DNA of 54,651 nucleotides, from assembly GCA_048213135.1 (NCBI GenBank), contig PS015236.1:38742-93392 (forward strand). Direction: 5' to 3'. Positions within the stretch are counted from its first letter, which is position 1. Every line of letters starts with the position of its first letter. The notes under the pieces are model-generated. The model was not told the DNA's origin. It ran no database searches and saw only the letters and a list, made by a program, of their open reading frames with translations. Position numbers and translations under genes: made by a program. The stretch comes from Reclinomonas americana ATCC 50394. Its lineage: Eukaryota. Positions 5,461-54,538 of the stretch are shown piece by piece.

Positions 5461-6793
5461 TCACCGACACGCCAGCTGCGTCCGTCCACGAGTGGACAAG
5501 TGCGACCCGCCAGCCAGCTCCGACTCAATGTCGTTCAGCAGCAGCGAGGTGGGCGTTGGGTGCTGTTGGAGGGGCGGCCGGGCGGCAAGTGTGCCATGGT
5601 TGGTCGCCACCGCCGGCGTCTCCGTCATGTTGGAGTTGCGTCGCAAAGCAGCAGCTGCCTGTGCCGGTGCAGGCGCCGCTGCTGCTGCCGCCGCCGCCGC
5701 TGCCGCCGCCGCTCGCTTGGTCACTGAGTGGTCGGCGGGGATGAGACCCTGCATGCGGTACTGCTGGGACCGCTGCCTCATCAAGCGCGACTCCTCCGCA
5801 TTCAGCGGCAGCATCGAGAACCGTACGAGCTCCGCTTCAATGTCGGCCATCAGCTCCTCCATCGAGTCGGAGGCCGCATGATGCCGCCGCGGGGCACTCG
5901 TGGCCGCCGGTGGCGCCGTGGGAGGCTGCGGTTGTGCAGGACGCTGCTGCGGCTGCTGGTGATGACGAGCATGCGGGCTCGGCGATCGACTCGGCACAGT
6001 GCCCGACACGCGCTTCTGTTGCTGTTGCTGTTGTTGTTGCTCTTGTCGCTGCTGCACCACCGGCTTCTTCTTCAACGGGATCGAGCGTCGTCGAGTCCTC
6101 CTGCGTCCTCCACTGCCCGACCCGCGCACATTATTCCGCCGCGGCCTCTCATCCTCCTCGTCCTCATCGTCCTCATCGATATCCCCCAGCACGTCGTCAT
6201 CAATCGTCTGAATCGGGGCGCGTCGACGGCGACCGTGTCCCTCGTCCTCCGCCTCCGAGGCCGTGGCACTGCTCGAGCCCGTCGCCAACGACGCCGTCGC
6301 GCTGTTGCTCGCGGCCGGCACCACTGTCAAGTGCTTTGTCGCTGCCTGTTGTTTGCCGGCAGGTTTCGCGCCCTTGCGTGGTCGCACATTCAAGTCATGC
6401 AGCACCGCGTCAGCGACCATGGCCATCACTGCGGCTGCTCAAACACGCAGTGCATATTCAGCGACACAATGATTGAGGTGGTGGAAAAACGACAAAATTG
6501 GATGCGTCGCACTCAACTGGAAGGATCCTTGGCGTCGACTGCTGCAGCAGTGACTCTTACTGCTGCTGCTGCAGTGCCGCGTGTCTGCTTGTGTCGATGT
6601 TGTGTGTGCACACCGGATGCGGGCGCAACTGTGCGCACACACACACAAAGAGTGAGTCTGAGTGCGAGAGAGAGAGACTGTGTGTGTGTGCGTGAGGAGC
6701 GCAACTGGAGTGTAGGTCAGTGAGTGCGGGTCCTTGTGCACTGTCCTGCCGCGACGCTGCCACCGCGGCTGCGGACGATGACTTGCACCCCAT
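5461..6793 (-). CDS. Hypothetical low-complexity protein with N-terminal MGCKSS acylation motif and four LD-like helical motifs
   Basis: Exon 1 is 6793-6706 (donor GTTGCG), exon 2 is 6628-6518 (donor GTTGAGT), and exon 3 from 6434 joins the 322-aa ORF in frame, ending at TGA 5461. The 3' end is uncertain. Confidence 0.6.
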
Positions 6794-6904
6794 CTCGCCT
6801 TCTCTCGTGCAACGCGTGAAAAATCGACGTTTTCGGTTTTACGTAGCGACCGATTTGGTCTACATAAAGAAATATCGAGTGGAGTGAGTGAGAGAGAGCG
6901 AGAA

Positions 6905-52020: not shown

Positions 52021-52632
52021 CTGCACCGCGTGGATAAAATGTAATCTCAAGGGCGGACGCCGGCTGCGCATGCAGAGTCTCCCACGGTGGTGGCCATACC
52101 AAGTAAACAAAAATTGCCTGCGCTGCAATACCGAAGACTCTCTCCATGCTGATCCGTTCGCTCAGCTGTTTATGCCAATCTGTTACTGTCGACTAAAGAC
52201 TCTTGCCCTGGCGGGTGAGATGCGGTCCGCAAAACCAAGCCTGGAGAAACGGCGTATTTTCTTTGCATGCATTTGCAGACATGCACCTCCCCAACGGAGC
52301 GAGAGCCCTTCACCGGCGCCGGCTTGTGCTTCTCACAGATCTCCTTGGTCGCCTGCGTATCTGCAACAGCAGACACCACAGCCACAACCAGGAGAGAGGA
52401 GAGAGCGACATGAGCAAACAATAAACGAATTTGCGCATAGCCAATCAAAACGGTTTGGTGGAAACGAAAAATCGGCATCCATCGCACGCACCCCTCTGTC
52501 CGTCAGTGAGCACAGAGCACAGCTTGTTGGGTTGTTTTTTTTTACAGTTGTGCGTGTGAGCGAGAAGAGGAAAAGAAGGCGAAGACGAAGGATAGTTGCA
52601 AACAAACGCCCACTGCTTACACACTCTGAAGA

Positions 52633-54538
52633 ATGGCGTCTGGGAGCGGTTCAAGCACTGCACAACCGTGCGAGTGGGCACCACACGTGGAGGCGGAGGA
52701 GATTGCGGGGTGGAAGCTGGAGGACTTTGAGTTGCTCCAGACACTAGGTGAGAAGAAGAGCACTTGTCTTTGCGCGCGCGCGTGTCTGTGTGGCACTCGC
52801 TCACACACACACGCGCTCACACACACACACAGGAACGGGCACGTTTGGTCGCGTGCGCCTCTCGTACCACACACCCACCAAGAAGTACTACGCCATCAAG
52901 TTGCGCACACACACTAACAAACAAACAAACAAACGCACGCGTCATGTCGAGGCGCCATCTCTCCTCTATCTCCCCCTTCTCTCTCCCTCTCTCTCTGATG
53001 ACATGCGCCTTGTGTGTGTGTGTGCGTGCTGACCTCCTTGTGTGCGTGTGTGCAGGATCATGAAGAAGGCACTGGTCATTCAACTCAAGCAAGTCGACCA
53101 CGTGAAGAACGAGAAGCAGATCCTCACCTCTGTCGACCACCCCTACATCACTCACTTGTTGCGTACACACACACACACACGCTCTCTCTCTACACACACA
53201 ATGATCAGACATGCAAGTCCATTCATTTTTTCGTAACAGTCAAATTTTGTTAAAGCTCACATGCTCTTCTCTGACACACACACCTCAGGTACAAGGCATT
53301 CCAGACTGACACTCGAATCTACTTGGTGTTTGAGTTTGTCGCCGGCGGTGAAATGTTCACGCACTTGCGAAAGGCTCAACGTTTCCCCGAAGACGTTGCG
53401 TCGAAACACACAAAGTCATTTTTGCGCTCGTCAGTTGTCTGACTCTTTGCGTTTTCCTTCCCCCGTAGGTGGCGCGTGTGTATGCTGCGGAGATCTGCTC
53501 TGTGTTTGAGCACCTGCACTCGAAGCACATTATTTACCGCGATCTGAAGCCCGAGAACATTCTCTTTGGCAACGATGGCCACGCTCGGTTGACCGACTTT
53601 GGCTTTGCCAAGGTGGTGGAGGACCGCACGTTCACGCTGTGCGGCACGCCCGAGTACCTCGCGCCCGAGATCATCCAGAACCAAGGCCACAACCGCGGTG
53701 TCGACTGGTGGGCGCTCGGCATTCTCATTTACGAGATGCTCGTCGGGTACGTGCGCTGCTTGCTTGTTTTCATTTGCTGTCGTGTGACTGACCCGTCCTG
53801 CTCATCAGCTATCCACCGTTCATCGATGAGAGCCCGTTCCGCATCTACGAGAAGATCCTCGAGGGCAAGATCCACTTCCCCAAGTTTGTGGATCCAGTGG
53901 CCCGCGATCTGATCAAGCGGCTGCTGACGGCCGACCGCACCAAGCGGCTCGGTCTGCTGAAGGACGGTGCCGAGGACATCAAGCGACACAGGTGGTTTGC
54001 CCCCATTGACTGGGACGCACTACTTGCGCGCAAGGTGCCGGCACCCATCCCTGTGCGTGTTGGCGACCCGAAGGACGCCATTTACTTTGAGCGCTACAGA
54101 GTTGCGTCGTCGTTGTCGTCTCTTGTTGCCTTTTTNNNNNNNNNNNNNNNNNNNNNNNNNNNNNNNNNNNNNNNNNNNNNNNNNNNNNNNNNNNNNNNNN
54201 NNNNNNNNNNNNNNNNNNNNNNNNNNNNNNNNNNNNNNNNNNNNNNNNNNNNNNNNNNNNNNNNNNNNNNNNNNNNNNNNNNNNNNNNNNNNNNNNNNNN
54301 NNNNNNNNNNNNNNNNNNNNNNNNNNNNNNNNNNNNNNNNNNNNNNNNNNNNNNNNNNNNNNNNNNNNNNNNNNNNNNNNNNNNNNNNNNNNNNNNNNNN
54401 NNNNNNNNNNNNNNNNNNNNNNNNNNNNNNNNNNNGCCAAGCACATTTCACTCATGTTTCCACACCTTGCAGGAGTCTGTGGGTGGCAAGGAGGAGCCAC
54501 TGCCGGCCAAGTACCAGGACCTGTTTGTGGACTTTTGA
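52633..54538 (+). CDS. pkaC: cAMP-dependent protein kinase catalytic subunit (PKA-C/PRKX-like)
   Basis: [54 protein letters not shown]-terminal hydrophobic motif FVDF*. Confidence 0.95.

Follow-up and report, generated by a model that had tools for sequence, protein, structure and literature searches.

An abundant second class of 5' splice sites, displaced by one base, in a 54.6-kb stretch of Reclinomonas americana DNA and its possible reading by U1 in a shifted register

The DNA analyzed here, a 54.6-kb window of contig PS015236.1 from Reclinomonas americana ATCC 50394, is intron-rich and contains ten N runs; G+C is 55–59% over the majority of its 5-kb windows and drops at the N runs. Among the genes predicted in it are a four-domain cation channel (about 12.5–26.4 kb, + strand), a MADS/SRF-type factor, WD40 proteins, an NmrA-like protein, a secreted or membrane protein, a hybrid histidine kinase, an Rce1-like protease, Prp16/DHX38, and a PKA-type kinase; the highest protein identities to any homologue are 79% for a Prp16 exon and 77% for a PKA exon. 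Our subject is the 5' splice sites (donors) of these genes, among which a first-pass annotation of the window had proposed a second abundant class of GTTGCG type. This class exists: the 107 short introns of our final set divide into 62 with an ordinary donor (G at intron position +5), 32 with a shifted donor (T at +3, G at +6, no G at +5), and 13 others.

Introns were predicted with a Viterbi gene finder written for this window, which combines a 3-periodic coding model with an intron model made up only of the GT..AG borders, an acceptor matrix, a branch matrix, and a length curve, and was trained on few introns from a flat-penalty first pass. That first pass was noisy, and a self-training pass, which inflated the prediction to 285 introns, was thrown out. 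A later donor-aware pass used a donor mixture model built from intron positions only; because donor scoring used intron-internal positions only, the statistics of the last exon base (-1) are not circular. For Prp16, PKA, and the channel we gathered homologues and ran a custom protein-to-DNA spliced aligner, which accepts any GT or GC donor, against eight homologues per gene, complemented by local junction tests in which all GT/GC x AG pairs within 30–45 nucleotides (nt) are scored. Channel homologues were obtained by an exhaustive search (367 at E<=0.001, with query identities of 29–47% for the 150 listed), a word-index search having returned one protein. In the channel the aligner mostly jumped across junctions and backed only a few of them, and local junction tests with 15 homologues were therefore used for this gene. 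Homology corrected the models at the ordinary donors 48661, 47073, 46138, and 45690 in Prp16 and 23917 in the channel (where the model had 23929), and added a Prp16 intron at 47761–47829 (-), a 69-nt intron with the donor atg/GTGCGA (a slash marks the exon/intron border), whose removal is required by 8/8 homologues and which reading-frame logic had missed because it is in frame and stop-free. After these corrections the set held 115 introns, eight of which, longer than 160 nt, were set aside as suspect.

The two classes differ in where the donor signal lies. Ordinary donors follow the consensus G/GTNNGT (mostly GTGAGT or GTGCGT), whereas shifted donors follow H/GTTNNGT (mostly GTTGCGT); the latter occur on both strands, in nine or more predicted genes, and read GTTGCGT (18), GTTGCGC (4), GTTGAG (4), GTTTCGT (3), GTTGTGT (2), or GTTACGT (1). 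The first-pass annotation had described the motif as an ordinary donor plus one T, with the +5 G moved to +6, and the 62 ordinary and 32 shifted donors bear this out. When the donor logos of the window are split by class, a shift of one base aligns them: G stands at +4 in 88% of shifted donors versus +3 in 66% of ordinary ones, T at +7 in 84% versus +6 in 63%, and the exon base at -1 of the shifted class (A 34%, C 25%, G 9%, T 31%) lines up with that at -2 of the ordinary class (A 29%, C 26%, G 19%, T 26%). The spacing between the two flanking Gs is 5 in both classes (-1/+5 in ordinary and +1/+6 in shifted donors).

The base before the donor separates the classes as well. As the annotation had it, ordinary donors mostly read G/GT: G stands at -1 in 48/62 of them, versus 3/32 of the shifted donors (Fisher p=1.3e-10), and the difference persists when only the strongest ordinary donors, GTG[AC]GT, are compared (17/22 versus 3/32, p=4e-7). 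Ordinary-register donors that carry T at +3 (GTTCGT, GTTTGT, GTTGGT) keep G at -1 in 7/8 cases, which ties the loss to displacement of the G rather than to the T. The claim that a shifted donor is never preceded by G does not hold, since 26081 (+), 33107 (-), and 45289 (-) follow G; of these, 45289 is the best homology junction, 33107 is needed for a membrane anchor, and 26081 comes from the finder alone. All three are among the 11 shifted donors absent from the earlier list. Nor is G significantly depleted relative to background: G precedes 16% of 1163 non-donor GTT, 19% of 296 GTT in sense exons, and 6/44 non-donor GTTGCG, so that 3/32 is not significantly below expectation (p=0.22 at 16%), and inclusion of the ten further listed sites gives 3/42 (p=0.08). 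The shifted class is thus without a preference for G at -1, while avoidance of G is not demonstrated. Further upstream, G at -4 is as rare (3/32) as at -1 in the shifted class, and the last six exon bases have a G+C of 0.52 before shifted and 0.62 before ordinary donors; both observations may be chance.

A second compositional feature is the GC core, found in 22/32 shifted versus 13/62 ordinary donors (p=1e-5), and ordinary donors without G at -1 are also rich in the GCG core (5/14). Donors 25423 (+), atg/GTTTGCGCGT, and 25161 (+), cag/GTTTGCAT, have two extra Ts before GCG or GCA and keep G at -1, a hint that the distance from GT to the GCG core is not fixed. In Prp16, at 48652–48661 (-), two donors, cag/GTTCTTTGCGT and tgc/GTGAAG, stand in tandem at an offset of 9 nt; the upstream one, in which a long T-rich spacer is followed by GCGT, is preferred by 8/8 homologues, and use of the downstream one would add three residues.

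Beyond the donor, the two classes are alike. The acceptor is CAG in 28/32 shifted and 58/62 ordinary introns, a branch sequence CT(C/G)A(C/T) lies about 18 nt before the acceptor in both, and median lengths are 70 nt and 66 nt, respectively. U12-type introns carry a long conserved RTATCCTT-type donor and a matching branch box; the donor logo and branch motifs of the shifted class show no such features, and this identity was rejected. Introner-like repeats were likewise rejected, given that an all-against-all blastn of intron interiors yielded 56 matches, of which the 20 inspected are 13–35 nt long, involve mostly CA/CT/GT-rich introns, and have no tie to the shifted class. With the same 3' ends, the same lengths, and no introner similarity, the shifted introns are therefore major-type (U2-type) GT-AG introns with a different 5' signal.

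The shifted class is cleaved at GT: its introns begin with GT and end with AG, and excising them re-establishes both the coding frame and the alignment to homologous proteins. Homologues or profiles fix the cut at GT for about 11 shifted donors (Table 1), which lie in PKA, Prp16, the channel, and the MADS gene. In the local junction tests, the GTTGCG donor comes out on top among all GT/GC alternatives at 52900, 53158, 53395, 47529 (-), 45947 (-), 18536, 17853, and 24316. At 47529 and 18536 the cut falls before the G of GTT because sliding it by one base changes a conserved Tyr to Cys. The earlier view that conserved residues set cleavage at GT is thus upheld by homologues for Prp16 K-Y-M and channel F-T-N-Y, while its third example, Rce1 F-G-L-S-H, is placed by ab initio prediction plus a profile match of the exon before it that falls just short of Pfam's threshold.

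The hexamer itself is over-represented in the window, where GTTGCG occurs 73 times on both strands versus 47.8 +/- 6.7 in dinucleotide shuffles (0/100 shuffles reach 73), a surplus that corresponds to the number of donors. Twenty-two copies are donors of the final models, seven are donors in the first-pass list only, and 44 lie elsewhere (19 antisense to genes, 12 outside genes, 10 in sense exons, and 3 inside introns). Measured against background, GTTGCG begins 22/107 short introns versus 44/6410 non-donor GT, an approximately 30-fold enrichment. The donor-agnostic finder, which returned 113 introns, already included 28 that begin with GTT and have G at +6 and none at +5. All 31 sites listed by the first-pass annotation carry the motif on the strand given and A, C, or T at -1 (25 GTTGCG and six variants), and 21 are in our final intron set: 18 from the donor-agnostic run plus 19579, 21060, and 23675 from the donor-aware pass, which also added 31137 (-). 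Ten listed sites lie outside this set. One of them, 39795 (-), is backed by the reading S-H-E/M-R-T-P/M-H-S-V-I obtained across two introns of the hybrid histidine kinase gene, which we take to fit the histidine-kinase H-box consensus and from which the candidate 12-nt micro-exon of Table 1 is called; the second donor at this micro-exon, 39718 (-), reads ccg/GTACAC, with no G at +5 or +6. Pfam gave no match for two short pieces flanking the H-box or for two Rce1 exons. Listed sites 15676, 41408, and 35548 (-) are plausible on open frames only, and 6517 (-), 6705 (-), 11365, 15054, 32928 (-), and 54101 have no verification. At the first of these, candidate donors GTTGAGT and GTGCGA overlap at 6512–6517 (-), 5 nt apart and in different frames, upstream of gene 5470–6435; neither is verified.

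Table 1 Shifted donors and associated features in the window. Lower-case letters are exon and capitals intron. Agnostic, found by the donor-agnostic finder; aware, found by the donor-aware pass only; n/8, homologues in the spliced alignment; paired scores, local junction test for the site versus the alternative (15 homologues for the channel).
Feature	Gene or context	Position	Strand	Intron (nt)	Evidence
caa/GTTGCGC	PKA catalytic subunit	52900..52906	+	156	agnostic; aligner 5/8; 111.8 vs 101.5
ctt/GTTGCGT	PKA	53158..53164	+	131	agnostic; aligner 8/8; 115.1 vs 105.6
gac/GTTGCGT	PKA	53395..53401	+	74	agnostic; aligner 7/8; 116.3 vs 106.3
aat/GTTGCGT	Prp16/DHX38, V-I-K-Y/M-T-D-G	47523..47529	-	78	agnostic; gap-free alignment; 8/8; 257.3 vs 246.3
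ctt/GTTGCGT	Prp16	45941..45947	-	74	agnostic; gap-free alignment; 8/8; 262.2 vs 251.2
ctg/GTTTCGT (variant, -1 G)	Prp16	45283..45289	-	82	agnostic; 135.9 vs 124.2; read-through meets stops; aligner 0/8
gaa/GTTGCGT	Prp16, unconserved region	48075..48081	-		ab initio only; no homologue coverage
atc/GTTGCGT	channel	17853..17859	+		agnostic; 27.4 vs 20.5
act/GTTGCGT	channel, F-T-N-Y	18536..18542	+		agnostic; aligner 5/8; 42.9 vs 33.9
ggc/GTTGCGT	channel	24097..24103	+		agnostic; 50.0 vs 49.6 for GC donor 3 nt on (near tie)
atc/GTTGCGC	channel	24316..24322	+		agnostic; 20.9 vs 15.6; aligner 1/8
gct/GTTGCGT	channel	23675..23681	+		aware; aligner 1/8
cga/GTTGCGT	channel loop	19579..19585	+		aware; agnostic pass took GT 12 nt upstream
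aga/GTTGTGT (variant)	channel	21060..21066	+		aware
gct/GTTACGT (variant)	channel loop	19095..19101	+		ab initio
gct/GTTGCGC	channel loop	14450..14456	+		ab initio
tga/GTTGCGC	channel loop	14625..14631	+		ab initio, found from flat first pass on
cga/GTTTCGT (variant)	channel loop	14784..14790	+		ab initio
ttg/GTTGCGT (-1 G)	channel, C-terminal region	26081..26087	+	63	ab initio only; in frame and stop-free, so frame undecided
cat/GTTGCGT	MADS (SRF-type)	27482..27488	+		agnostic; exon 27416–27481 matches SRF-TF profile 23–44 of 48 to last residue
tac/GTTGAGT (variant)	MADS	27845..27851	+		ab initio
tat/GTTGCGT	unnamed gene 8964–10110	9521..9527	+		ab initio
atc/GTTGCGT	Rce1-like CAAX protease	44156..44162	+		ab initio; next exon, from residue 2 to its end, resembles Rce1-like profile 16–50 (E=0.00028, narrowly short of the Pfam threshold)
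tct/GTTGCGT	Rce1-like, F-G-L-S-H	44343..44349	+		ab initio; exon before stops at profile position 50
tcg/GTTGCGT (-1 G)	secreted/membrane protein	33101..33107	-	77	ab initio
ccc/GTTGCGT	gene 10–1226	1160..1166	-		ab initio
tca/GTTGCGT	gene 10–1226	591..597	-		ab initio
cga/GTTTCGT (variant)	gene 10–1226	398..404	-		ab initio
aga/GTTGAGT (variant)	NmrA-like	31431..31437	-		ab initio
cca/GTTGAGC (variant)	NmrA-like	31131..31137	-		aware
aaa/GTTGAGT (variant)	hybrid His-kinase	37020..37026	-		ab initio
gac/GTTGTGT (variant)	hybrid His-kinase	39364..39370	-		ab initio
gaa/GTTCCGT (variant)	His-kinase, before 12-nt exon	39789..39795	-	65	outside gene models
candidate 12-nt micro-exon M-R-T-P	His-kinase	39719..39730	-		between 65-nt intron (donor 39795) and 81-nt intron (donor 39718)
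aca/GTTGCGC (listed)	channel loop	15676..15682	+	72	open frames both sides; good acceptor; outside gene models
gga/GTTGCGC (listed)	fragment between two N runs	41408..41414	+		low-threshold agnostic run only, fragment score 2.4
tac/GTTGCGT (listed)	after putative signal-peptide exon	35542..35548	-	63	open frame with Met and hydrophobic stretch; outside gene models

Several further features of the window bear on how its genes are to be read. In the secreted-protein gene at 32923–34956 (-), a 678-codon open frame spans several predicted introns; this frame is misleading because two of the introns (67 and 77 nt) jointly preserve it. Splicing at the 33107 donor of that gene links a plausible exon to a membrane anchor, and read-through gives Arg/Pro-rich off-frame text plus a stop. 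Two WD40-repeat genes, 35786–36816 (+) and 51186–52017 (+), are intron-less, look paralogous, and have similar C-terminal tails; the genes around them have one intron per about 200 nt. A purine-rich (GA/GGA) tract with repeated units extends over 10300–12100, and the listed donor 11365 lies at its edge. An Rfam scan of the window at gathering scores brought no family to threshold, and a permissive scan (E<=1) gave 14 weak matches, none to a spliceosomal small nuclear RNA (snRNA); the matches in the purine-rich tract are spurious and of microRNA type only.

How would a donor displaced by one base be recognized? The 5' end of U1 snRNA contains C4 and C9, whose spacing is also 5 (PMC4856993), and the constant spacing of the two Gs together with the lost preference for G at -1 therefore favors a one-base shift of U1 over a bulged U. 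A single U1-type snRNA would serve both classes by pairing with one footprint, G-(G/U)-U-N-N-G-U; in the shifted class the intron's +1 G would take the place of the exon's -1 G opposite C9, the +6 G would take that of the +5 G opposite C4, and the catalytic core (U6/U5) would then cut at the first GU of the footprint. Since these sites would scarcely be bound by a U1 with the standard 5' end (see below), U1 in this organism probably also pairs with the GC core, e.g., by carrying G at position 5, a change that has been reported in a preprint for Mastigamoeba. We put the chance that these are U2-type introns with a 5' signal one base further in, read by one U1-type snRNA in a shifted register, at about even. 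The pairing partner and register that we infer would, on the energy model, probably require a non-standard U1. The broader proposal, that two registers of 5' splice site recognition operate side by side by means of a GC-pairing U1 5' end or a second U1 variant, is tentative and may well prove wrong.

Pairing strength was estimated from nearest-neighbor energies for each register against the standard, unmodified U1 5' end, a model that leaves pseudouridine, proteins, and the cap outside. Ordinary donors bind this U1 with a mean of -6.9 kcal/mol in the canonical register, and for shifted donors the shifted register is the best of the three modeled at 23/32 sites. Several observations nevertheless weigh against the shifted-register proposal. 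With standard U1, the shifted class averages +0.4 (canonical), -0.15 (shifted), and +0.2 kcal/mol (bulged), and exonic decoy GTs, at -1.7 kcal/mol in their best register, bind more strongly; with energies near zero in all registers, a plain shift on standard U1 therefore fails to explain the class. At the -1 base, which would face U10 of U1, A reaches 34% and no further enrichment of A or G is seen, and the bias for a GC core is unexplained by a standard U1 with two pseudouridines at that place. About two thirds of the class, moreover, come from our own ab initio models of a single 54-kb window, and these models held known errors, namely three Prp16 donors that were moved, the intron that was added, the channel donor that was moved, and the eight suspect introns longer than 160 nt. 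The annotation's idea that the +1 G replaces the -1 G in U1 pairing across a major class hence survives in part: the footprint is displaced and the -1 G preference is gone, but standard U1 hardly binds. The adapted or variant snRNA that the annotation also proposed is plausible in the case of U1. Hypothetical changes in U1 raise the affinity. A G at position 5 would give the shifted class -4.4 kcal/mol in the shifted versus -3.3 in the bulged register, and G5 together with C6 would give -6.0 and -4.8 kcal/mol, with ordinary donors at -7.8 to -8.4. It is only with hypothetical 5' ends of this sort that the shifted register becomes clearly more stable than the canonical one, neither being stable on standard U1.

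Changes of this kind could also reside in a dedicated second U1 variant (e.g., with A for C at position 8 and a GC-pairing core) that recognizes GUUGCGU in full register while a standard U1 serves the ordinary donors. The very tight consensus of the shifted class (GTTGCG in 22/32, with the +7 T noted above) and its bias toward a GC core, absent from ordinary donors, speak for such a variant, as does the model, in which a hypothetical fully complementary U1 5' end binds the shifted class at -10.2 kcal/mol and ordinary donors at only -3.2; altered U1 5' ends matched to atypical donors have been described in Entamoeba and Mastigamoeba (bioRxiv 10.1101/2022.06.08.495308). However, three changes would be needed in a highly conserved segment, and two other lineages that prefer C at +4, Thecamonas and Micromonas, have a standard U1 (same preprint), for which reason an altered U1 of any kind is here a prediction and not a finding. 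We regard a dedicated variant as unlikely.

The near-zero U1 affinity in every register could instead mean that U1 pairing is of minor importance, and that the shifted class is this organism's version of the intron-anchored ('right-handed', U6-biased) donors, with U6, U5, LUC7-type, or other proteins recognizing the GCGU core and the extra U being tolerated. The frequency of the GCG core among ordinary donors that lack G at -1 fits such a seesaw between the exon and intron halves of the donor. This account gives no reason why, in 32 introns, the core should follow a T and lie precisely one base further in instead of keeping the normal register; H/GTGCGT does exist but is rarer, with 14 ordinary donors lacking G at -1 against 29 shifted ones. 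It, too, seems improbable to us. Still within U1, the same snRNA could keep the +1 G:C8 and +2 U:A7 pairs and bulge one U (+2/+3), so that GCGU pairs one step later. Bulge +2/+3 and +3 registers have been validated in human cells (PMC4856993), and in our model the bulged register comes within 0.4–1.2 kcal/mol of the shifted one and is best at 4/32 sites. Bulging leaves C9 facing -1, however, and a preference for G there would be expected; the frequencies of 3/32 in the shifted class, 48/62 in ordinary donors, and 7/8 in ordinary +3 T donors make a bulge quite unlikely. Finally, it is extremely improbable that wrong gene models or intron borders make a background hexamer look like a donor, even though most sites come from our own finder, 6/31 listed sites lack verification, and GTTGCG occurs 10 times in predicted sense exons, because the donor-agnostic prediction, the homologue-fixed junctions, the roughly 30-fold enrichment, and the matching surplus of GTTGCG all point the other way.

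If U1 does read the shifted donors one base off, this would be the first genome with register-shifted U1 pairing as a major, selected intron class rather than a rare exception. Donors after exon ends other than G would use /GUUGCGU, the first G of the intron replacing the last G of the exon, and a genome with roughly 3 in 10 donors displaced would show that the shifted mode can serve routinely for exons not ending in G. How the phosphate to be cut is chosen under an out-of-register U1 is known from a handful of human sites and minigenes; the present class would provide a natural system for what fixes the cleavage site, and would show that U1 can pass donors with an additional +3 base to U6/U5 at many sites of a genome, and that co-evolution of donor motifs with the U1 5' end is possible. 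In practical terms, gene finders with a single donor matrix would misplace many exon ends, and our own first models erred at several sites.

A search of full-text literature for a GTTGCG-type motif as donor gave no such class among the matches listed, supplementary donor tables being outside the search. Shifted U1 pairing is an established mode for a few human 5' splice sites (PMC4856993, PMC9311317). These sites (Roca and Krainer 2009, via PMC4856993) share with ours the GU start, +3 U, +6 G, the cut at GU, and, on the shifted-register reading, a one-position displacement of every U1 pair that sets the +1 G opposite C9; unlike ours, which make up about 30% of the introns of the window and have a GC core barely bound by standard U1 in the model, they are rare and have long A-rich complementarity to U1, with a model oligonucleotide at -6.5 to -6.8 kcal/mol. 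The bulge +2/+3 and asymmetric-loop registers (Roca 2012; Tan 2016, PMC4856993) likewise place one extra nucleotide before a +5 G-type anchor and form +6 G:C4, but they keep the -1 G:C9 pair, whereas the class described here has lost the -1 G preference; in humans, +2/+3 bulge sites account for 68 predicted (54 curated) of 10,248 predicted noncanonical-register 5' splice sites (4,270 curated) (PMC4856993). Co-evolution of U1 with atypical donors offers a second parallel, with a U1 change of the kind that our energy model suggests: in Mastigamoeba, GUGCGC donors, which prefer C at +4, are matched by a changed U1, ACGUAC (bioRxiv 10.1101/2022.06.08.495308). Entamoeba and Mastigamoeba differ in having a single donor class in the normal register, the sections of the preprint covered describing no shifted class. 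The division of donors into exon-anchored and intron-anchored classes, as far as the sources covered describe it, resembles the present case in that two classes occur per genome and donors with a stronger intron half less often carry G at -1; there both classes keep to a single register, whereas in the present window the intron-anchored class sits one base further into the intron.

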